47,449 nt of DNA from Candidatus Magasanikbacteria bacterium RIFOXYB2_FULL_38_10 (GTDB lineage: Bacteria; Patescibacteriota; Patescibacteriia; Magasanikbacterales; UBA10003). The notes under the pieces are model-generated. The model did not search any database, was not told the DNA's origin, and saw only the letters and a program-made list of their open reading frames with translations. The stretch is from NCBI GenBank assembly GCA_001783145.1, contig MFQT01000010.1, forward strand, positions 1 through 47,449, in the 5' to 3' direction. Each line of letters opens with the position of its first letter. Position 1 is the stretch's first letter. The translations under genes and the position numbers were made by a program. Positions 21,249 through 38,237 of the stretch are shown piece after piece.

Positions 21249-24092
21249 TTAAACAACAATACTTAACAGCTTACCCTTAACAAAGATAATTTTTTTAGGT
21301 TCTTTGCCTTCCAGCCATTTTTTAATTTTTTCGCTAGATAAAACAATTCTTTTGGCCTCTTCTTCTGTAATATCCACCGCCACCTCTAAAGTATCACGCA
21401 ATTTACCATTAACTTGCACAGCCAAAATAAAAGTTTCATCTTTGGCCAATTCGGCGTTAAACTCTGGCCAAGCAGATTGAAAGATTGTTTTCTTATTACC
21501 TAGTTCCTGCCAAATATCCTCTGCCAAATGCGGAGCAAAAGGAGCCAGGAGTTTAATAAATTTTCCAAAATCGTCTTGGCTAATGATGGAAGAATCATTT
21601 AAATTATTAACAAAAATCATTAATTGCGAAACGGCTGTATTAAATTTCAATTCTCCAATATCATCGGTCACTTTCTTAATTGTTTTTTCAATTTCTCTTC
21701 TCAATTCTTTATTTGTCTCTTTGGCCCATTTAATTTTTTGTGAAAAGTTCCAAATTCTCTCTAAAAACCTTCTCATGCCTACCACGCCTTTGGTGCTCCA
21801 AGCACAAGGCTGACCAAATGGCCCCATAAACATTTCATAGAGCCTCATAGCGTCAGCGCCATATTCACCCACAACATCATTAGGATTGATAACATTATTC
21901 CAACGCTTGCTCATTTTGCGGCCATCCTCGGCCAAAATCAAGCCGACGTGTTGTAATTTAGTAAATGGTTCATCATAGTTTACCGCGCCGATATCAAATA
22001 AAAATTTATGCCAAAAACGCGCGTAGATTAAATGCCTGGTGGCATGTTCTGCCCCACCAACATACAAATTTATGGGCGACCAATATTTTTCTAAATTCTT
22101 ATCAACCAATGCTTTTTTATTATTGGGATCCTCATAGCGCAGATAATACCAACAAGATCCGGCCCATTGCGGCATAGTGTTAGTCTCGCGCTTGGCTGGT
22201 CCGCCACACTTGGGACAAGTTGTATTCACCCACTTTGTGATATTAGCTAGTGGAGATTCCCCTGTTCCTGTCGGCTCATATTTTTTAACTTTGGGCAATT
22301 CTAATGGCAAATCTTTTTCTGGCACGCTCACCCAGCCATCTTTCTCACATTTCACCAGCGGAATTGGTTCTCCCCAATAACGTTGCCTGGAAAAAACCCA
22401 ATCACGGATTTTGTATTGCACCTTTTTTTCTCCCAAACCTTTTTCTTTTAGCCAGTTAATTATTTTTTCTTTAGCCTCTAAAGTTGAAAGCCCATCCAAA
22501 AAATCAGAATTGATTGCGATGCCTTCACCAGCAAAACATTTTTCTTTAGGATCAATTGCGCGACGAATAAACTCCACTTGACCTTGTATATTATATTTTT
22601 CAAATAAAGATAAGGCATCTTTTAAATTTTGCCACTCACCGGTGTAATCCTCAAGATCTTCCATCTGCGGTGGTTGTTGTTTTTCTGATTTTAAATTGAC
22701 AATATATCCTTTTTGATATTTTAAACGTTGTATTTTTAAATCCTCAATATAAAAATTAGCCTGAATTGTTCCTAAAAAATCCCCCCTCTCAAAATCCAAA
22801 AATCCTGTCTCTTCAATTATTTCTCTTCTAAGTGTTTGTTCGTCACTTTCTCCTTTATTATATCTACCAGCCGGCAATTCATACTCGCCATTCGGGCGTT
22901 TCAACACATAAATCTGTCCTTTTTTATTTAACAAAACACCTGCCACGCCATCGGCGCGGATAAAATTGGTTTCAACTTCACCAAATTGTTTAGCTACCAC
23001 CTCTTTAATCCCCAATCCATACTTCTTAGCAAACTCATAGTCCCTTTCATCATGCGCGGGCACGGCCATAATGGCGCCGGTGCCATAACCCATCAAAACG
23101 TAATCCGCCACCCAAACCGGCAGTTCCTCTCCATTCACTGGATTTATGGCCACCACGTCTTCCAACTTCACGCCAGTTTTTTCTTTAGCCAAATCAGTCC
23201 TCTCCAATTCTGATTTATTTTTTGCTAGAGCAACGTAATCTTTTACTTCCACCAAATTACAAATTTCCCCTTCTAAACTATGTAGCAAAGGATGCTCTGG
23301 CGTAAGGACAACATAAGTAGCTCCAAACAAAGTGTCGGGACGAGTGGTAAACACTTCCAAACTTTCCTCCTGCCCACCTGCTTTTAATTTAAATGTCACC
23401 AAAGCCCCTTCGCTTTTCCCAATCCAATTTCTTTGCATCTCTTTTATGGATTCTTCCCATTCAGGCAAATTATCCAAGCCCTGCAATAATTTTTCTGCGT
23501 AATCGGTAATTCTAATCACCCACTGACGCAAGGGCTTGCGTTCTACAACAGAACCACAACGTTCACAAAGTCCTCCTTCCAAATCTTCATTAGCCAAACC
23601 GGTTTTACATCCCGGGCACCAGTTAATAGGCTCGTTTGATTCATAAACCAAACCTTTTTTAAACATTTCCAAAAACGCCCACTGCGTCCATTTGTAATAA
23701 GCCGGGTCGGTAGTATTAACTTCTCTGTCCCAATCATAGGTAAAACCCAAAAGTTCCAACTGCTTTTTAAAAATTTTGATGTTTTTTTCCGTAGCCACCG
23801 ATGGATGAACTTTATTCTTGATAGCGTAATTTTCCGCTGGCAGACCAAAAGCGTCCCAACCCATTGGATGCAAAACATTAAACCCCTGCATCATTTTCAT
23901 TCTGGCAATGACATCTGTGGCAATATAGCCCTTAGGATGGCCCACATGCAAACCTGCACCGGAAGGATAGGGAAACATATCCAAAACATAATATTTTGGT
24001 TTGTCGCCACCTTCTTTGGTTTTATAAATCCCCTTTTTAATCCACTCTTTCTGCCACTTCTTTTCTATTTCTTTGTGATTATATTTTTTCAT
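21249..24092 (-). CDS. leuS: leucyl-tRNA synthetase carrying an in-frame Nudix hydrolase domain insertion
   Basis: 947 aa; HVGHP, ZN-1 knuckle CPGC...CERC, editing domain TTRPDTLFGATY, RDWVFSRQRYWG, KMSKR. About 130 extra residues (aa ~375-500) after the editing domain contain a perfect Nudix box GRYNKGESDEQTLRREIIEETGF. Confidence 0.9.
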   Translation of the reverse strand: MKKYNHKEIEKKWQKEWIKKGIYKTKEGGDKPKYYVLDMFPYPSGAGLHVGHPKGYIATDVIARMKMMQGFNVLHPMGWDAFGLPAENYAIKNKVHPSVATEKNIKIFKKQLELLGFTYDWDREVNTTDPAYYKWTQWAFLEMFKKGLVYESNEPINWCPGCKTGLANEDLEGGLCERCGSVVERKPLRQWVIRITDYAEKLLQGLDNLPEWEESIKEMQRNWIGKSEGALVTFKLKAGGQEESLEVFTTRPDTLFGATYVVLTPEHPLLHSLEGEICNLVEVKDYVALAKNKSELERTDLAKEKTGVKLEDVVAINPVNGEELPVWVADYVLMGYGTGAIMAVPAHDERDYEFAKKYGLGIKEVVAKQFGEVETNFIRADGVAGVLLNKKGQIYVLKRPNGEYELPAGRYNKGESDEQTLRREIIEETGFLDFERGDFLGTIQANFYIEDLKIQRLKYQKGYIVNLKSEKQQPPQMEDLEDYTGEWQNLKDALSLFEKYNIQGQVEFIRRAIDPKEKCFAGEGIAINSDFLDGLSTLEAKEKIINWLKEKGLGEKKVQYKIRDWVFSRQRYWGEPIPLVKCEKDGWVSVPEKDLPLELPKVKKYEPTGTGESPLANITKWVNTTCPKCGGPAKRETNTMPQWAGSCWYYLRYEDPNNKKALVDKNLEKYWSPINLYVGGAEHATRHLIYARFWHKFLFDIGAVNYDEPFTKLQHVGLILAEDGRKMSKRWNNVINPNDVVGEYGADAMRLYEMFMGPFGQPCAWSTKGVVGMRRFLERIWNFSQKIKWAKETNKELRREIEKTIKKVTDDIGELKFNTAVSQLMIFVNNLNDSSIISQDDFGKFIKLLAPFAPHLAEDIWQELGNKKTIFQSAWPEFNAELAKDETFILAVQVNGKLRDTLEVAVDITEEEAKRIVLSSEKIKKWLEGKEPKKIIFVKGKLLSIVV

Positions 24093-26242: not shown

Positions 26243-26857
26243 CTAGGCCGCGGCGGCCTTCTTCTTCGGGGCGGCCTTGGCCTTCTTCCCGGCCTTGGGC
26301 TTGGCCGGCGCCTTCTTGCCCTCGTCCGCGGGCTGGGTCGGGGCGGCGGGCTCCGGCTTGGGCGGCGGGGTGTAGCCCGTGGCCTCGTGGAACCAGCTCG
26401 GCGCCGCGTCGTTGACCAGCACGCCCTTCTCACCGGCCTGGATGCCGAGCGCCTTGACCGCGCGCACCAGCACCATCTTGACCTCGGCGGCCGTGGTCAG
26501 CACCTTGGAGTAACGCGGCTGGTCGTCCTGCCCCGGCTGCTTCCAGTCGTACTTGGCCGGGAAGCTGGACTTGAGGTCCACGCCCTTGGCCGGCTCCACC
26601 CGCACGCGCACCTGGTGCCCCAGGTCTCGCACTCCGATCCTGCCCTTGGGGGTCACCGCCAGCACCAGGTACTGCCCAGTGCTCTCGGTCCCGCCCATGA
26701 AGAACGGGTTGACCTTCTTGCCGTCCTTCTTGACCACCTTCAGTGGCCAGTCCGGGAAGCCGAGCGCCTTGAACGCCTTGCTCATGTCCATGGGGTTCTC
26801 CTTCGGCGCCTTCTTCTGGGGCGCCGCGCCGGTGGTGGGGGTCTCTCCGCACGCCAT
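26243..26857 (-). CDS. basic protein: unknown N-terminal domain plus histone-H1-like Lys/Ala/Pro-rich C-terminal tail
   Basis: 204 aa, about 68% GC; tail PPPKPEPAAPTQPADEGKKAPAKPKAGKKAKAAPKKKAAAA; GAGGAGG Shine-Dalgarno upstream; last gene of the 3-gene operon. Confidence 0.7.
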   Translation of the reverse strand: MACGETPTTGAAPQKKAPKENPMDMSKAFKALGFPDWPLKVVKKDGKKVNPFFMGGTESTGQYLVLAVTPKGRIGVRDLGHQVRVRVEPAKGVDLKSSFPAKYDWKQPGQDDQPRYSKVLTTAAEVKMVLVRAVKALGIQAGEKGVLVNDAAPSWFHEATGYTPPPKPEPAAPTQPADEGKKAPAKPKAGKKAKAAPKKKAAAA

Positions 26858-26874: not shown

Positions 26875-27717
26875 CTACTTTAGCTCCTTATCAGTTGGGA
26901 AACTTTCCTTTACACCCGTACCCGAACCGAATGCTCCAAACGTCCCCTGGCTTCCACCAGGCAAACGTGCTTGATCCAAATAACCATAGCGCGATGATCC
27001 CGGAGGATTAAAGCTGTCGTCTGCCAAATCCTCCAAGTAGTAAACGCCACTCTTTCCCCCGGTTCCGTAGTTGGTGATGCCAAGGGAGTAATCCCTCAAA
27101 GAAGGATCGTTCGAGTAGCTCTCGGGAAGATCTTCTCCCCGCAGAGCGAAAATCGCTTCCGCTTGCTCCAGCGTTTCCACCGACTTGTGGCAATGACGCT
27201 TACGAGCGGCAGAGATTGGATCCGGAGTCTGCTCCCTGTTCTCCAACAAAGCGATGAGAGACGCTAGGAACGTCCCTGTTCGCCCGTGAGAGCCGATGCA
27301 GTACACCATCACCTTTTTACCAGCCTGCAACAACGGAATGACTTTGTCAAGCAAGAACTCTTCAAAGCCATCCGGTGGTGGACTAAAGTCAGGCCAAGGG
27401 CAACCCAAGACCTGAACTGTCTGCCCCAGTTCCAAACGGATCGCCCGAGTATCATCCAGGGGTATCAAGACATCAAACCCGTCAAAATCCCCTTCTTTCA
27501 GATACCGTGTCCCGCCCGGATAGATCTGGTAAGGGCCAACCTGCACCGCCTTCTTACCGCGGTGTGCAGGGTGGCTATCTTTTTTAATCTTCAATTTTTT
27601 GGCAGAACCACCGCTTGCTGGGACAAAGCCCTTCTCGGTCCAATCCCAGGCTTGGTCAGAACCCTTACGGCCATGTCCAGTTGGCAGGCCGCCCTTTCCT
27701 CCTTGCTCTATCATCAT
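26875..27717 (-). CDS. dual-specificity / protein-tyrosine phosphatase (CX5R P-loop) with G/S/Y-rich low-complexity C-terminal tail
   Basis: 280 aa; catalytic VYCIGSHGRTGTF with upstream WPDFSPP...; tail YSLGITNYGTGGKSGVYYLEDL...GGSQGTFGAFGSGTG. Confidence 0.8.
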   Translation of the reverse strand: MMIEQGGKGGLPTGHGRKGSDQAWDWTEKGFVPASGGSAKKLKIKKDSHPAHRGKKAVQVGPYQIYPGGTRYLKEGDFDGFDVLIPLDDTRAIRLELGQTVQVLGCPWPDFSPPPDGFEEFLLDKVIPLLQAGKKVMVYCIGSHGRTGTFLASLIALLENREQTPDPISAARKRHCHKSVETLEQAEAIFALRGEDLPESYSNDPSLRDYSLGITNYGTGGKSGVYYLEDLADDSFNPPGSSRYGYLDQARLPGGSQGTFGAFGSGTGVKESFPTDKELK

Positions 27718-27738: not shown

Positions 27739-30087
27739 CTAAGCTGCTTTTTGTAAAATCTTAGTCTTCCAAAGGCCAAGATTTTTACCCCTTTCAAACA
27801 ACTCCTGAACTTCTTTACTAAATTCCCACCGAGCCAAACCTTCGTAGAGAGAAGCAATGCTCGTAGCGTTCTTCTTAATCTCCAACTGCTCTTGAACCTC
27901 GTATCTGTCTCCGGACAACATCTCGTGCTTGTCAAAGACATTGCCCGTGTTGTGCTGAAGATCAAAAACGTGATCGGCAAAAGCAGAGTGATTCAGCTTG
28001 CCACTGAGGAACAAAAGGCCGGCCGTAGCAATAACAGCCCACTTGGGACCGCCAAAGCTATAGCCGCGCCATTTTCCCTTTTCAAAGGCTTCGGCGTTAA
28101 GGCGGAAGAATTCAATTGCCTCGGCCAAGTCCATCTTCTTTAAGGCCTCTTTCAGAATCTTCTGGGTATTCTCTCTGTTACTGGGACTAGTGCCCCAGTA
28201 GTCGTTCGGAAGATGATACTTAGCCCTAAGGATAAAGTAGGCCGGTGAGGCAGCTGTCACTTTGCTTTCATCGGCGAATTCATCATCCTTTTTTTGCGGA
28301 GAATAATGCCGCGATTCGGCACCAACGGCCATGGCCAGGTAGGCCACAAAACGCTCGGCCGTTTCAATATGGATCCGCCGACGCAAGCTGGCAACGGCAG
28401 ATTCCAACGCTGTTCCCTTGGACGCTTGGGTCATGGCGTCCACCAGGTAAAAGTCATTGAGAGTGGTATTGACGGAGACACGGCTCTCAATGTACGCGGG
28501 ATCAAGGCGGGGCTTTGGCCAATACAAGTTGCTCTTTTCCATCCAGCGCAAGAAGATGTTGGTTTCCTTCTTGGGCACTGGATTAGCCATTTCCACCACG
28601 CCATTCATAACCATTCCGGTTGCTCCGTCTACCGAAATGATCTGTCCTTGCTTCACCAAAAGATCTTGGACGCCGACCACCGCCGGCTTGCCAAAGCTTC
28701 TGGCTACGACAGCCGCGTGCGATGTTGCTCCGCCAACCTTAGTTACCACGGCGGCAGAAATGAGCAGTCCGGGAAGATCCGCTGGTGATGTCTCGTCGCG
28801 CACCAGGATCACCTTGACTCCGTTGTTTGCCAACTCAATGGCTTCAGCAGAACTCAAGGCAACTGTGCCCACGACCGCACCAGGCGAAGCCGGCAGACCC
28901 TTGGCTAAAAGTTTGGCTTGCGCCGCCCTCGCCAAGGCCTCTGGCTTGAACACCTGACGGCTCACCGCCTCTATCTGCTCTGCAGTAACCCGCCGCAAAG
29001 CTTCATCCTTGGTCAACAGCCTCTCCCAAACCATGTGAGTGGCAATAATGACCGCAGCTTCGGGGGTGCGCTTAGCTGCCCGATACTGCAGGATGTAAAG
29101 ACGGCCGTTTTCCACGGTGAACTCCACGTCCACCGCGTCTTTCAAATGGGCCTCCAGCTTCCGCACAATCTGCTGGAGTTCGATGAAGAGGTGGGAGTTC
29201 CACTCCTTCATCTTAGCAATTGGCAACGGGGTGCGGATCCCGGCCACCACGTCCTCACCCTGGGCATTAACCAAGAACTCGCCGTAAAGCTCAGGGTTGC
29301 CAGTGGAGACATCGCGGCTAAAAACGACCCCTGTGCCAGAGTCGTTGCCACGGTTGCCAAAAACCATGGCCTGCACATTGACCGCCGTTCCCCACCATTC
29401 GGGAATCTCGTGCGCCTGGCGGTAAGCCTTGGCGCGCTCGCTATCCCAAGAGAGAAACACGGCCGTGATCGCCATCTGTAGCTGCTGCCAAACATCGTCC
29501 GGCACCGAACGCTTAGTCGCACTGGAGATAAGCTCGCGATAATTCTCGCAAAGCTCTTCCAGCGACTTAATGGTCAGCTTGCTGTCCTCAGTTATGCCTT
29601 GCTTGCGCTTGGCCTTGGTGAGGATTTTCTCAAAGCGCTGACGATCAATACCCAGGACCACGTCACCGAAAAGGCTTAGAAACCTCCGGTAAGTATCCAA
29701 GGCGAAACGCTTTGAGCCGGTATCCTTGGCCAGACCCTTAACGGTCTTAGGATTCAGACCAAGATTGAGCACCGTGTCCATCATACCGGGCATGGACTTG
29801 GCCGCGCCCGAACGCACGGACACGAGAAGCGGAGAGGAGTTGCCCCCAAACCGCTTCCCGGTCCGTGCTTCCAGCGCCTTTACACCTCTTTGAAGCTGCC
29901 CGGCGAACCGGGCAGGAAAACCACCGTGCTCGCCAAAAGCGCGGGCAACAGTCGTCGTCACCGTGAACCCGGGCGGAACCGGCACGCCAAGGCGCACCAT
30001 TTCCGCAAGACCCGCTCCCTTACCGCCCAAAACCTGGGCAGTACGGGCTACCTCTCCAAAGAGGTAGACCACTTGTCCGTTCCTCAT
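27739..30087 (-). CDS. PPDK-derived phospho-histidine phosphotransferase: PPDK_N ATP-grasp plus PEP-utilizer swivel His domain plus a novel ~260-aa C-terminal domain replacing the pyruvate/PEP TIM barrel
   Basis: 782 aa; residues 1-520 align closely to pyruvate phosphate dikinase (LGGKGAGLAEM, LLVSVRSGAAKSMPGMMDTVLNLGLN, WGTAVNVQAMVFGN, NAQGEDVVAGIRTP, GGATSHAAVVARSFG). The C-terminal third lacks every PEP-utilizers_C motif and is about 48% GC against about 61% for the PPDK part. Confidence 0.85.
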   Translation of the reverse strand: MRNGQVVYLFGEVARTAQVLGGKGAGLAEMVRLGVPVPPGFTVTTTVARAFGEHGGFPARFAGQLQRGVKALEARTGKRFGGNSSPLLVSVRSGAAKSMPGMMDTVLNLGLNPKTVKGLAKDTGSKRFALDTYRRFLSLFGDVVLGIDRQRFEKILTKAKRKQGITEDSKLTIKSLEELCENYRELISSATKRSVPDDVWQQLQMAITAVFLSWDSERAKAYRQAHEIPEWWGTAVNVQAMVFGNRGNDSGTGVVFSRDVSTGNPELYGEFLVNAQGEDVVAGIRTPLPIAKMKEWNSHLFIELQQIVRKLEAHLKDAVDVEFTVENGRLYILQYRAAKRTPEAAVIIATHMVWERLLTKDEALRRVTAEQIEAVSRQVFKPEALARAAQAKLLAKGLPASPGAVVGTVALSSAEAIELANNGVKVILVRDETSPADLPGLLISAAVVTKVGGATSHAAVVARSFGKPAVVGVQDLLVKQGQIISVDGATGMVMNGVVEMANPVPKKETNIFLRWMEKSNLYWPKPRLDPAYIESRVSVNTTLNDFYLVDAMTQASKGTALESAVASLRRRIHIETAERFVAYLAMAVGAESRHYSPQKKDDEFADESKVTAASPAYFILRAKYHLPNDYWGTSPSNRENTQKILKEALKKMDLAEAIEFFRLNAEAFEKGKWRGYSFGGPKWAVIATAGLLFLSGKLNHSAFADHVFDLQHNTGNVFDKHEMLSGDRYEVQEQLEIKKNATSIASLYEGLARWEFSKEVQELFERGKNLGLWKTKILQKAA

Positions 30088-31150
30088 GTTCTCCTCCTTG
30101 CGAGAGTGGGATTTTTGGGTTTTGTCACAGCAGGGTCACCAGAATAATTCCGGAGGTTTTCCTTATACCGGCCACACCCATTCGCCCGGATTGGATTTTT
30201 GTCCAGAATTTTTCTTTTCAATGGCTATTCCAGTTTTATCTCCACTAGTTAATTAGTTAAGGATTTACACTCACCGAAGTGAGTCCTTGCTAAAATTCCA
30301 GTGGCTTAGACTGGTATCACCATCTAGGCAAGCTTATACCCGCTATCTAGGTTCACCCAAGGCTAAAACCTTTAGCTGATCCCGGTTGCTGATCTGCGGA
30401 TTTTTCAACCCTTCAATTCAACCTTTCACAGCCTCAGGCCATAACTGCATTTGCTACAGCCGCGGTCGCCAACCGCTCTTTACAATTGCCTAGCCACCGG
30501 GGCTAGGTTACCTTTACCAGCAAGAAAACAGACAGCAAATATCTGTAAACTTGCGACCATCACCGCCCAGGCCGGCTTGATGATTTCCAACTCCTAGAGA
30601 CCCTCGAGCCTCTTTAGAATTGGAGGTGTAGTAGAAGGACCCAATCTGTTCCTTTCCTGCCACACAGGTAGATCTTGCAGAAGGCATGCCCGGTCCTTTC
30701 CGCAAGAGTCTGTTTCTCCCCCTTCCCAGTCAGTCCCTTTCAGGAAGACTCCAGGGGAGAAAGAAGAACTACCAACAGGGTCAGACCAACCTGCTGGCAA
30801 ACGTTTTAACCTAGGGGTGGCCACCCCCATGGTCGCGTGGTGCACCACAGGACGCGTTACCGCCCCACAACCAACCCCGCGTCATTGCCAACGCCGGGAA
30901 GGTTGATTTTTAAACTTAACAAAAATTTAGTTTTATTAGTGTCTTTATATCAAATTTTGATATAAAGACTTCAGGCACTGCATACTACCCCCTTGCTAAT
31001 TCCGGCAATTGAATTAGCAGGGTTGCTGATTTATTTTTGCGAGGTGGGTTCAGCTCCCACCGTCTGTTGCTTAAGGCAGTGCATTTCTTCCTCCTTTTTG
31101 TTGATGTGTTGAATTGTCAACGAGCACGCAACCACGGTTTTTCACTAACC
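30088..31150. other. about 1.1-kb non-coding, intermediate-GC, palindrome-rich tract upstream of the GC-rich operon (candidate structured RNA, operator array or decayed DNA)
   Basis: No ORF of 100 aa or more on either strand; perfect palindromes ggggtggccacccc (30814..30827), gtggtgcaccac (30837..30848) and gtctttatatcaaa-t-tttgatataaagac (30941..30969); many short hairpins. Confidence 0.4.
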
Positions 31151-31358
31151 ATAGCGGCGAATATAATTTGGATATCTAAACAAACGAAGGTAGATATCAA
31201 AACATTATTTGCCACTAATTTAAGCTTAAAATTATATTTTTTAGGAAACGTATTATTGTATCACAAATTTTAACTTTTGTCAAGTCCCCTGTGGTCGTCC
31301 CAGATAAAACATAAAACCAGCCCAAACAAGGGCTGATTTTTATGTCATCAATTAAATA

Positions 31359-32627
31359 TTAAACAGTTCCCCTGCCTTTTAATGATTCCGCCAACCTCTT
31401 TAAAGCCACAGCAAAAGCAGTGGTACGCAAAGGTAGTTTCTTTTCTAAATGCATTTGCCAAATACCCTCCAAAGCGCTGTGCAATTTATCTTTCATCCTA
31501 GAAATTACTTCGTCTTCTGTCCAAGAATAGCCATACAAATTTTGCACCCATTCCATATAGCTACCCACCACGCCGCCGGAATTAGCCAAAACATCGGGAA
31601 TTACCAAAACACCTTTTTTATTCAATTTTTCATCAGCCTCAAAAGTGATCGGGCCGTTAGCCAGCTCCAAAATAATTGGAGCTTTGATTCTGCCGGCATT
31701 TTCTTTAGTAATTTGATTTTCCAAAGCGGCCGGAACCAAAACATCGCAAGGCATTTCCAATAATTTAGCATTGCTCATTCCTTGAAAATTAGAACAATCA
31801 CAAACCGAACCACTGCAATAACAACCCGCTAATAAGCCTTTGTTCTTTTTTGTTTCCATGATTTTATCTAAATTCATACCCAGGCCGCGCTTATCATAAA
31901 TTCCACCCTGAGAATCGGCCACGCCAACAATTTTTAAACCGGCTTTTTCCGCTTCTTTGGCAAACCAATAACCAACATTACCTAGTCCTTGAATAATCAC
32001 CTTAGTTTTTTTAGGATCTTTTTTTAATTTTTTTAAAATTTCAGCTAAAACATAAAAACCACCGGTACCGGTTGCCCTTTCCCTGCCTTCGGATCCGCCC
32101 AAAGCCAAAGGCTTGCCGGTCACTACCGCCGGTTTGAATTCACCGGAGAGATTGCCAAATTCATCAACAATCCAACCCATAATCTTGGCATTGGTGTTAA
32201 CGTCCGGCGCAGGAATATCTGTTTTAGGACCAATATCAGCGCGCAAGGCTCTGGTGTAACTTCTGGTCAAATGTTCCAATTCATGTTCGGACAAAGTTTT
32301 AGGATCTAATTTAATGCCGCCCTTACCGCCACCGTATGGCAAATCCGCCACCGCGCATTTTATGGTCATCCAAAAAGCCAAGGCTTTAACCTCATCCAAG
32401 TTGGCTTGTGGATGAAAACGAATTCCACCTTTAAAAGGACCGCGAGCATTGTTGTATTGCACGCGATAGGCCTCAAAGACTTCCACAGTTCCATCATCTT
32501 TTTTAAGAGGCAAAGATAATTCTATGATGCGCTGAGGTTTTTTTAAAATTTCCCAAACTCCCGGGTCAAGATTTATAGCCTCAGCCGCGGTTTTTAACTG
32601 TTCCAAAGCAGATTTAAAAACTGACAT
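31359..32627 (-). CDS. gdhA: NAD(P)-dependent glutamate dehydrogenase
   Basis: 422 aa; Glu/Leu/Phe/Val dehydrogenase signature GPFKGGIRFHP, catalytic-Lys region, GxGNVG Rossmann motif. Confidence 0.9.
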   Translation of the reverse strand: MSVFKSALEQLKTAAEAINLDPGVWEILKKPQRIIELSLPLKKDDGTVEVFEAYRVQYNNARGPFKGGIRFHPQANLDEVKALAFWMTIKCAVADLPYGGGKGGIKLDPKTLSEHELEHLTRSYTRALRADIGPKTDIPAPDVNTNAKIMGWIVDEFGNLSGEFKPAVVTGKPLALGGSEGRERATGTGGFYVLAEILKKLKKDPKKTKVIIQGLGNVGYWFAKEAEKAGLKIVGVADSQGGIYDKRGLGMNLDKIMETKKNKGLLAGCYCSGSVCDCSNFQGMSNAKLLEMPCDVLVPAALENQITKENAGRIKAPIILELANGPITFEADEKLNKKGVLVIPDVLANSGGVVGSYMEWVQNLYGYSWTEDEVISRMKDKLHSALEGIWQMHLEKKLPLRTTAFAVALKRLAESLKGRGTV

Positions 32628-36986: not shown

Positions 36987-38237
36987 ATGACGAAGCTCCT
37001 CAACATCAAGGGCGATTTCCCAATCCTGAGAGAACCCAGGGGAGACGAAGGTGTTTTCCTGACCTACCTGGACAGCGGGGCATCGTCGCAGAAGCCCGAG
37101 GCGGTGATCAAGGCGGAGGAGCAGTTCTACTGCGCCTCCAACGCCAACATCCACCGCGGTGCCTACCGGCTGGCCCGCAAGGCCACGGAGATGTACGAGG
37201 CCGCGAGGGTCACGGTGGCCGCGTTCATCGGGGCCGGCGATCCCCGGTCCCTCGTCTTCACCAGCGGCACCACCATGGGCACGAACATCGTGGCCCACGC
37301 CTGGGCCGAGGGCAACCTCCAGGACGGCGACATCGTGCTCTTCACGGAGATGGAGCACCACGCCAACATCGTCCCTTGGCACCTGCTGGGCAAGCGCCGC
37401 GACATCAAGACCGCGGCCGTCAAGGTGGACGACCGCGGGGTGCTGGACATGGAGGATCTGAAGGCCAAGCTCACGGCCGGCGAGGGACAGGTGAAGCTGG
37501 TGGCCGTGACCCACGTCTCCAACGTGACCGGGGTGAAGAACCCCGTCAAGGAGATCACGTCTCTCGCGCATCAGTTCGGCGTGGCCGTGCTGGTGGACGG
37601 GGCGCAGTCCGCCCCCCATCTGCCCGTGGACGTGGAGGACATCGGGTGCGACTTCTTCGTCTTCTCCGGCCACAAGATGCTGGGGCCGACCGGCATCGGC
37701 GGCCTCTACGTGCGTCCCAGCCGCTGGAGCGAGATCTCCCCCTTCTTTGGGGGCGGTGACATGATCACGGACGTCACCCTGGAGAACTCGGCCTTCAAAC
37801 CCATGCCCAGCCTGCTGGAAGCCGGTACGCCCAACATCGCCGGAGCGGTGACGCTCGCGGCGGCCTGCGACTACCTCAAGAGCATCGGCATGGAGCGGGT
37901 TGAGGAGCACGTCAGGACCGTGGGCACCTACGCCTGGAACAAGCTCAAGGCCATTCCGGGCGTAAAGGTCTACGGACCCGGCCCGGGAGAGCACAGAACC
38001 GGTTCACTCGTCTCCTTCACCGTGGACGGCGTCAAGAACGACGAGATCATGGCGGAGCTGGACGAGTACGGGGTGGCGGTGCGCGTAGGCCGGTTCTGCG
38101 CCTGGCCCATCTTCAAGCGCCTGGGCTTGGGCAACAACGGGGCGGTGCGAGCCTCGTTCCACATCTACAACAACTACCAAGACGTTGATCTGCTGGCCTC
38201 GGTCATCCGGGGACTCGCCGAGCAGGCGCACCAGTAA
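36987..38237 (+). CDS. sufS: SufS/CsdA-type cysteine desulfurase (class V aminotransferase, PLP-dependent)
   Basis: 416 aa, about 65% GC; PLP-lysine motif SGHKMLGPTGIG; catalytic Cys loop RVGRFCAWP; whole-length similarity to group II cysteine desulfurases. Confidence 0.9.
   Translation: MTKLLNIKGDFPILREPRGDEGVFLTYLDSGASSQKPEAVIKAEEQFYCASNANIHRGAYRLARKATEMYEAARVTVAAFIGAGDPRSLVFTSGTTMGTNIVAHAWAEGNLQDGDIVLFTEMEHHANIVPWHLLGKRRDIKTAAVKVDDRGVLDMEDLKAKLTAGEGQVKLVAVTHVSNVTGVKNPVKEITSLAHQFGVAVLVDGAQSAPHLPVDVEDIGCDFFVFSGHKMLGPTGIGGLYVRPSRWSEISPFFGGGDMITDVTLENSAFKPMPSLLEAGTPNIAGAVTLAAACDYLKSIGMERVEEHVRTVGTYAWNKLKAIPGVKVYGPGPGEHRTGSLVSFTVDGVKNDEIMAELDEYGVAVRVGRFCAWPIFKRLGLGNNGAVRASFHIYNNYQDVDLLASVIRGLAEQAHQ

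Follow-up and report, generated by a model that had tools for sequence, protein, structure and literature searches.

A conserved structured RNA upstream of a dikinase/phosphatase cassette in a Magasanikbacteria genome

A candidate phyla radiation bacterium has a genome that can ill afford spare DNA, and it may be asked what such a bacterium keeps in more than a kilobase of non-coding sequence next to an operon. The case studied here is a tract within a stretch of 47,449 nucleotides (nt) from the groundwater genome of Candidatus Magasanikbacteria bacterium RIFOXYB2_FULL_38_10 (contig MFQT01000010.1, positions 1 to 47,449; the whole stretch is called the window below). The original prediction, made from the sequence alone, described this tract as palindrome-dense and as flanking a foreign operon, and offered a large structured RNA, an array of regulator-binding sites or the eroded end of a gene or mobile element as explanations. 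We find that the minus strand of the tract almost certainly encodes a structured RNA that has been conserved. It represents a new structured RNA class, with a core of about 200 nt that has grown to more than 0.8 kb in this bacterium and that is tied to a conserved, uncharacterised enzyme cassette in at least four bacterial lineages, the cassette also occurring in a split form in Vibrio phages. The RNA probably controls the cassette or works with it, and to the reading that it is a cis-acting sensor and regulator of the cassette, its free-standing copies being regulated small RNAs or decoys, we give a probability of about 0.5.

Conserved RNA structure in the tract

The tract occupies a gap of 1271 nt between the start codon of a 782-amino-acid (aa) gene (30087) and the stop codon of a glutamate dehydrogenase gene (31359). 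The extent of 30088-31150 (1063 nt) given by the original prediction was therefore too short, the true end being 31358, while its description as non-coding stood: the longest open reading frame (ORF) inside the gap has 84 aa and none of at least 100 aa occurs on either strand. The GC content, which had been placed between those of host and island, is intermediate only as an average, with one block at 0.50 (30088-30869, island-like) and another at 0.37 (30870-31358, host-like). All of the predicted perfect palindromes are present (GGGGTGGCCACCCC at 30814-30827, GTGGTGCACCAC at 30837-30848 and, at 30941-30969, the 29-nt GTCTTTATATCAAA-T-TTTGATATAAAGAC with arms of 14 nt), as are the short hairpins actcac-cgaa-gtgagt (30269-30284), cctagcc-accgg-ggctagg (30489-30507) and gtggg-ttcagct-cccac (31043-31061). 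The tract has four perfect palindromes whose arms reach at least 6 nt, where 2000 dinucleotide shuffles give an expectation of 0.66 (P(≥3) = 0.03); an arm of at least 10 nt appeared in 0.4% of the shuffles, and across the 47-kb window there is no second palindrome of the size of the one with 14-nt arms. The predicted fold of 30088-30900 reaches -312.8 kcal/mol in the minus sense (z = -4.8) and -252.9 kcal/mol in the plus sense (z = -3.2), a difference of 60 kcal/mol in favour of the minus sense.

The tract is identical in five other assemblies, so divergent relatives were required for comparison. Homologous loci (numbered with the prefix L below) were all gathered through the cassette, and the linkage counts that follow carry this ascertainment. 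Two loci are close relatives: L006, with a dikinase 59% identical to the 782-aa protein and the same thioredoxin-glutamate dehydrogenase flank, and L093, with a dikinase 53% identical and the same EamA/GH42 flank. In both loci the sequence that precedes the dikinase gene can be aligned with the tract (E = 4e-33 for L006), near-identical blocks standing between variable stretches. A two-sequence profile led from here to weak collinear matches upstream of the same gene in Saccharibacteria and at other loci, which share three hairpins with varying stems and constant loops, an arrangement that RNAalifold confirmed on seven sequences.

These three hairpins make up domain 1 of the core (30431-30519, minus strand): H1 at 30507-30489 with the loop CCGGU, H2 at 30476-30462 with the loop UUGGCGA and H3 at 30460-30444 with the loop GCAAA. 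A covariance model of H1-H3 with 90 positions, R1, matches the window at 30519-30431 on the minus strand (88.1 bits, E = 2e-18). It has 52 matches in 88 sources, every one of them on the strand of the dikinase gene (52/52), and it also matches L093 and L094. With filters off, L072, L083 and L085 also yield weaker versions of the motif at the same 5' position.

Domain 2 of the core (30115-30361, minus strand), delimited by manual alignment and a three-sequence consensus, consists of an outer helix, Pa, and an inner helix, Pb. The 5' strand of Pa is UUGGGU (30360-30355) and its 3' strand ACCCAA (30120-30115); Pb pairs UAGCGGG (30345-30339) with CCUGCUG (30134-30128). Between the two 5' strands lies AACCUAGA (30353-30346) and between the two 3' strands UGACAAAA (30127-30120), all on the minus strand. 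The corresponding model, R2, comprises Pa, the strand ACCUAGG, Pb (GCGGUGG/CUGCCGC) and the strand CGACAA. All 54 of its 54 matches are on the gene strand and follow an R1 match at a distance of 100-250 nt, the order of the two domains being constant, and together the R1 and R2 matches cover about 45 related loci. The window itself gives two half-hits only to R2 (30366-30319 and 30158-30111) because the loop of Pb holds a lineage-specific insertion of about 200 nt (30338-30135, minus strand), which is shared with L006 and L093 and contains the UUCG hairpin at 30284-30269. A weak degenerate match to domain 2 (GGAGAUAAAACUGG...GACAAAAAUCCAA, E = 0.03 in a 400-nt search) also falls within this insertion, at 30187-30249 on the minus strand, and may be a decayed internal duplication.

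Compensatory change supports both domains. In the R1 alignment 91.3% of cells are paired, against 28-42% when the partners are slid by 1-3 columns, 17 of the 18 pairs show changes on both sides, and 196 cells are doubly changed against 53 in shuffles; these figures, and those for R2, come from model-fitted alignments, which inflate pair counts, and from three-sequence consensus folds rather than from R-scape. The seed observations and the slid controls agree in direction with the fitted pair counts. Pb is 98.6% paired in the R2 alignment, with G-C to A-U exchanges, and Pa is 68% paired, a figure limited by register shifts in the alignment. The three-sequence consensus retains Pb, and Pa, UUGGGU/ACCCAA in the window, is UAGGG/CCCUA in L093. 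The UUCG tetraloop and the G.U pairs exist only in the minus sense. Of the explanations first offered for the tract, the large structured RNA has the support of the homologous loci, of covariation and of a strand bias that is complete and follows the sense of the neighbouring genes (minus here).

At its shortest the RNA measures about 190-210 nt, for example in L019 (1156-1347) and in the Obscuribacterales form of L016 (4233-4439). In the Magasanikbacteria lineage it is enlarged to about 0.8-1.16 kb by the Pb-loop insertion and by a structured 5' domain of about 390 nt (30520-30905, minus strand) common only to the window and its closest relatives L006 and L093. For this 5' expansion, RNAalifold on the three sequences predicts 99 pairs, 43 of them with pair-keeping changes on both sides, and a covariation term of -14.3 kcal/mol.

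Judging from the aligned sequences, both GC-rich palindromes of the tract are conserved RNA hairpins of this domain. The 12-nt one, GUGG-UGCA-CCAC (30837-30848, minus strand), is identical in L006 and becomes GUGGUGCACCAU in L093, with a G.U closing pair that is workable in the minus-sense RNA only. The 14-nt one, GGGGU-GGCC-ACCCC (30814-30827, minus strand), sits inside a helix GACC/GGUU (30834-30808); it has 16 nt in L006 and is AGGGUGGCCACCCU in L093, where the outer pair has undergone a double change from G-C to A-U. The stem CAGCAGG...CCUGUUG (30773-30796, minus strand) is fully compensated, reading CAGCAA/UUGCUG in L006 and CUAAUGA/UCAUUAG in L093. Directly 5' of the core, the long hairpin GCAAG-UUU-ACAGAU..AUUUGC..GUCUGU-UUU-CUUGC (30520-30554, minus strand) has both helical segments compensated in L006 and L093. 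A hairpin followed by a U tract before domain 1 was considered as an attenuator and rejected, since the U tract is paired in this longer covarying hairpin (30554-30520); the L006 counterpart is flagged by the terminator scan, and its U tract is likewise paired in the consensus.

The RNA corresponds to no family that we searched for. Rfam 15 matched the whole window at gathering thresholds only with the ribosomal protein L10 leader (RF00557, 15033-15184, minus strand, 51.4 bits), so that the Rfam scan proposed for the tract gave no match there, and at the permissive threshold of E ≤ 10 the region 29900-31500 had sub-threshold chance hits only. On eight homologous loci (five plus three), nothing was found at gathering thresholds and nothing at E ≤ 1. 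These scans showed no homology to OLE, GOLLD, ROOL, HEARO or raiA, families which we take to be included in Rfam. ARAGORN found no tRNA or tmRNA, and no tandem repeat of a short unit that would suggest a type III toxin-antitoxin RNA or a CRISPR-like array was present. In the literature searched for the RNA or the cassette, only the Vibrio phage 'PPDK' is described, as an auxiliary metabolic gene, and the RNA family is absent both there and from Rfam 15.

Linkage of the RNA to the cassette

The island beside the tract is GC-rich (26.2-30.9 kb) and consists of three minus-strand genes. The first (27739-30087) encodes the 782-aa protein, a dikinase with a PPDK_N domain (the PPDK ATP-grasp), a phosphohistidine swivel domain and a new all-helical C-terminal domain of about 280 aa with invariant motifs; it has no phosphoenolpyruvate/pyruvate TIM barrel, and the label 'pyruvate, phosphate dikinase' in public annotation is a mislabelling. 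The second (26875-27717) encodes a DSP/PTP-fold cysteine phosphatase of 280 aa with the CX5R motif YCIGSHGRTG, and the third (26243-26857) a small protein of 204 aa ('SM'). The basic tail of the window's small protein was tried as the mark of an RNA-binding family and rejected, as it is not conserved. By tblastn, more than 50 loci, drawn from metagenomes and GTDB genomes, keep the order of the three genes, and horizontal acquisition of the three-gene operon is part of our best explanation of the locus. PADLOC and NCBIfam, run on the cassette and neighbouring proteins, gave no defence system and no named family beyond the N-terminal half of PPDK, and the plasmid collection held no cassette homologue.

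The original prediction was right that the tract adjoins the operon; what it missed is the strand and the tie to the cassette downstream. Every motif match is on the cassette strand and no more than a few kb from the cassette; besides the window, the motif occurs at cassette loci of Melainabacteria/Obscuribacterales, Saccharibacteria, other Patescibacteria and a Gammaproteobacteria metagenome-assembled genome. In the window and in about 20 loci the RNA occupies the 5' untranslated region on the gene strand, the exceptions being 3' copies and tandem copies without an ORF. The window has a Shine-Dalgarno (SD) sequence AAGGAGGAG (30099-30091) and the AUG of the 782-aa gene (30087-30085; together 30085-30099, minus strand), and 27 nt separate the last helix strand of domain 2 from this AUG; the spacing is 20-45 nt in 10 other distinct loci. 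Other genomes have the RNA in front of the phosphatase gene (L070), of an SM paralogue (L066, L077) or of the gene that opens a longer operon containing the cassette (L027, L065). At several Obscuribacterales loci a small hydrophobic ORF (MSNITFTIIGLIMIA...) begins about 40 nt after the RNA (L024 ~1675, L058 ~3665, L061 ~3385 and L028 ~2965).

In the window, a promoter scan gave a sigma-70-type promoter of near-consensus sequence, TTGACA-17-TGaTACAAT (31255-31283, minus strand; 11/12 matches plus an extended -10 TG), which would place a putative leader transcript start at about 31248. In L093 the same promoter type (ACTTGACAAAA...-17-TGnTAAGAT) precedes the homologous gene at a matching distance of about 1.1 kb. 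The intrinsic terminator of the upstream glutamate dehydrogenase gene (31313-31340, minus strand; an 11-bp stem and a U tract in the scan) forms a boundary outside the RNA, and the terminator scan found no minus-strand terminator between the promoter and the 782-aa ORF. From promoter to ORF the whole leader RNA would span 30088-31248 on the minus strand, about 1.16 kb, and conserved hairpins occur along this full length in L093 and L006.

Two of these hairpins lie 5' of the expansion domain. The 12-bp hairpin CCCUGCUAAUUC-AAUUGCCG-GAAUUAGCAAGG (30991-31022, minus strand), in the AT-rich 5' part, was read from the alignment with L093, whose counterpart CCCAAAUAAUUC/GGAUUAUUUGGG has three compensatory pair changes and keeps the loop. 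The hairpin GGUGGG-AGCUGAA-CCCACC (31043-31061, minus strand) is retained in L093 as GGUGGGGGGCUGAUCCCACC. Also in this part of the tract, at 31031-31096 on the minus strand, a strong SD sequence AAGGAGGAAG and an AUG open a 17-codon ORF; L093 has an SD-like sequence and an AUG at the aligned leader position, where the ORF has 6 codons. The 17-codon ORF may be a short upstream ORF or merely a structural part of the leader.

Relatives of the cassette also occur in phages. Vibrio phage 1 (L097, JF713456.1 62890-67032) has a split cassette that adjoins DNA polymerase I and encodes a 691-aa protein with PPDK_N and swivel domains, a 160-aa protein, a DSP-type phosphatase of 165 aa and a 336-aa homologue of the dikinase C-terminal domain (hhalign probability 98.9%). 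Such a split cassette is also present in 13 other Vibrio siphophages and in the 595-kb uncultured phage LR756511.1. No copy of the RNA motif was found in the Vibrio phage (VHS1-type) cassettes, and an exact-pattern scan for the 3' motif in viral contigs gave none; that the phage enzymes are present without the RNA is indirect evidence that the enzymes do not need it for catalysis. In a single case (P0148, L095 574-1395), a TIR domain is joined to a small-protein homologue, beside an HNH_2 endonuclease gene and a HIT-family gene, away from any dikinase and without the RNA. The TIR fusion and the phage copies hint at a role in host-virus conflict.

Possible roles of the RNA

The cis-acting reading rests on the conserved, covarying helical structure, such as cis-regulatory leaders have, and on the position of the RNA in front of the cassette. 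The promoter shared with L093 and the phage enzymes that occur without the RNA are counted in its favour too. The leader transcript would begin at the conserved promoter (31283-31255) and reach the start codon at 30087 after about 1.16 kb. Domain 2 ends 27 nt short of the AUG, and the binding of a signal, which could be a metabolite or a cassette protein, would set the output of the cassette. On this view, the copies that stand alone in other genomes would be regulated small RNAs or decoys. Should the RNA prove to be a riboswitch, its ligand would give a clue to what the dikinase/phosphatase pair acts on.

Several observations weigh against this reading. We found no universal anti-SD segment and no terminator/antiterminator pair that could act as expression platform: for the SD sequence of the window a weak 4-bp hairpin is all that is predicted, and the CUCCU that many copies have in the Pb loop is missing from others. 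The genes suggest no ligand. A lineage-specific growth beyond 1 kb is seen more typically in the RNAs of ribonucleoproteins (RNPs) than in riboswitches, and transcription of the leader is inferred from the sequence. Furthermore, some copies have no gene to control from a leader position: in the Saccharibacteria loci L079/L080 the RNA is 3' of the cassette, with an intrinsic terminator and convergent genes beyond it, L026 has two tandem copies past the operon terminator with no ORF between them, and for the second copies in L016 and L078 no downstream ORF was found over the 1.5 kb searched or over several hundred nt. By eye, the sequences examined here contain hairpins that may be terminators.

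The same free-standing units, with their own terminators and no downstream gene (L079/L080, L026), and the second copies in L016 and L078 speak for a different reading, which we regard as possible and appreciably less probable: that the RNA is a non-coding partner dedicated to the cassette proteins, serving them as scaffold, guide or substrate and transcribed either together with them or alongside. In the window such an RNA would only happen to stand at the 5' end of the operon transcript, and processing may release it. Linkage and co-orientation are indeed constant while the position varies between 5' of, inside and 3' of the cassette. Conserved hairpins in the lineage-specific expansions have the tetraloops UGCA and GGCC, which are self-complementary and could mediate RNA-RNA contacts, and large expansions with self-complementary loops are more typical of RNP or self-associating RNAs. 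A dikinase with a DSP-fold phosphatase also resembles a reversible phosphorylation pair; such pairs can act on polymers, as glucan, water dikinase does with SEX4/laforin on glucans, and the DSP-fold enzymes PIR1/DUSP11 act on RNA 5' ends. However, the Vibrio phages have dikinase, phosphatase and C-domain genes without a copy of the RNA, and in many loci the start codon is kept at a tight 20-45 nt, which is suggestive of action at the ribosome-binding site. Moreover, the small protein has no recognisable RNA-binding fold, the basic tail of the window copy is not conserved, and over 36 matched units we found no run of at least 4 pairs that would form a pseudoknot between domains 1 and 2, and no guide-like variable segment. 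A partner RNA, if that is what it is, would make a new kind of RNP.

By analogy with those polymer-modifying enzymes, one may also imagine an RNA-centred cycle, possibly a conflict system, in which the helical domain of the dikinase phosphorylates the RNA or a target presented by it and the DSP-fold phosphatase reverses this; we consider such a cycle unlikely. Under either the regulatory or the partner reading, a defined RNA and three defined proteins make the question directly testable.

It is less probable still that the palindromes are DNA operators for dimeric transcription factors and that the other conservation is incidental. The strongest case is the 29-nt palindrome (30941-30969), a lineage-specific candidate for an RNA hairpin or a DNA operator, which is far beyond chance and overlaps weak promoter-like hexamers on both strands. 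Perfect palindromes of 16-24 nt, mostly AT-rich, also stand 200-560 nt upstream of the motif in L070 (~6887), L059 (~3960), L016 (~8156) and L026 (~4367); they are unrelated in sequence to that of the window. Yet the 29-nt palindrome is conserved neither in L093 nor in L006, although these are the closest relatives, and there is no regulator gene in the island. For the two GC-rich palindromes an array of regulator sites is a misfit: their variation keeps RNA pairing and not DNA symmetry, as seen in GUGGUGCACCAU, which pairs only as minus-sense RNA, while the second changes on both arms together to AGGGUGGCCACCCU. Compensatory helix changes run all along the tract, and the motif matches are strand-specific. 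An operator role is thus possible for the 29-nt palindrome only.

Finally, we give next to no credence to the tract being a decayed gene or mobile-element end left by insertion of the island: the island is compositionally foreign and L006, L007 and L008 have an ORF at the equivalent place, but these ORFs are mutually unrelated and leave no trace in the tract (tblastn E > 0.3 only, and no support for its own small ORFs), conservation follows helices and not a reading frame, a repeat search and self-BLAST found no copy of the tract elsewhere in the 47-kb window or in flanking loci, the window has no terminal inverted repeats and only short, two-copy direct repeats consistent with chance, and no transposase or integrase lies nearby. 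The ORFs just upstream of the RNA in these relatives belong to no family (L006 3070-4194, 355-374 aa; L007 948-2186, 412 aa; L008 4276-5235, 319 aa); the one in L006 appears by eye to be internally repeated, and the window has no such ORF.

Related systems and other observations in the window

Among known elements, the structured 5' leaders (cobalamin, ydaO/c-di-AMP, T-box, L10 leader) resemble the tract RNA in lying on the gene strand immediately upstream of the gene, and in having a covarying multi-helix core with invariant unpaired nucleotides, an association with several genes of one module and a 3' end near the ribosome-binding site. The tract RNA differs from them in having no Rfam match and no identifiable expression platform and in that some copies are free-standing or 3' of the module; at about 0.8-1.16 kb, the window RNA is also several times larger than typical riboswitches. 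The occurrence of one element both in mRNA leaders and in free-standing, terminator-ended units (L026, L079/L080) may be compared, by analogy, with EutX/Rli55, which carry a B12 aptamer, and with CsrB-type decoys that bind a leader-binding protein.

With OLE, GOLLD, ROOL, HEARO/omega-RNA and raiA the RNA shares a covarying structure of several hundred nt, a patchy spread across phyla that is consistent with horizontal transfer, an occurrence in uncultivated and compact genomes and an association with particular protein genes; OLE is associated with oapA/B/C and HEARO with IscB. In contrast to these classes, the conserved core is here only about 200 nt, the large size being a lineage-specific expansion, and the partner genes are a dikinase/phosphatase cassette; there is no homology in sequence or structure. 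The conserved linkage and co-orientation with specific protein genes recall the Y RNA-Rsr and omega-RNA-IscB type of system, a likeness to be read with the gathering of the loci through the cassette in mind.

As for the cassette, its closest likeness is to glucan, water dikinase with SEX4/laforin, where a PPDK-family ATP-grasp/phosphohistidine enzyme with an extra domain is likewise paired with a DSP-fold phosphatase. The extra domain of the cassette dikinase is, however, a new helical fold and not a carbohydrate-binding module, a third small protein and a dedicated structured RNA are added, and the phage versions adjoin DNA polymerase I.

Two further genes of the window deserve mention. The leucyl-tRNA synthetase gene at 21249-24092 (minus strand) encodes a protein whose editing domain is followed by an inserted NUDIX domain (Pfam, residues 380-496). 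At 36987-38237 (plus strand) lies a class-V aminotransferase gene with a GC content of 0.66 in a genome of 0.37 GC, which on its composition looks like a second foreign gene; public gene calls for it conflict on the strand, giving either a 416-aa plus-strand ORF or a 371-aa minus-strand ORF.

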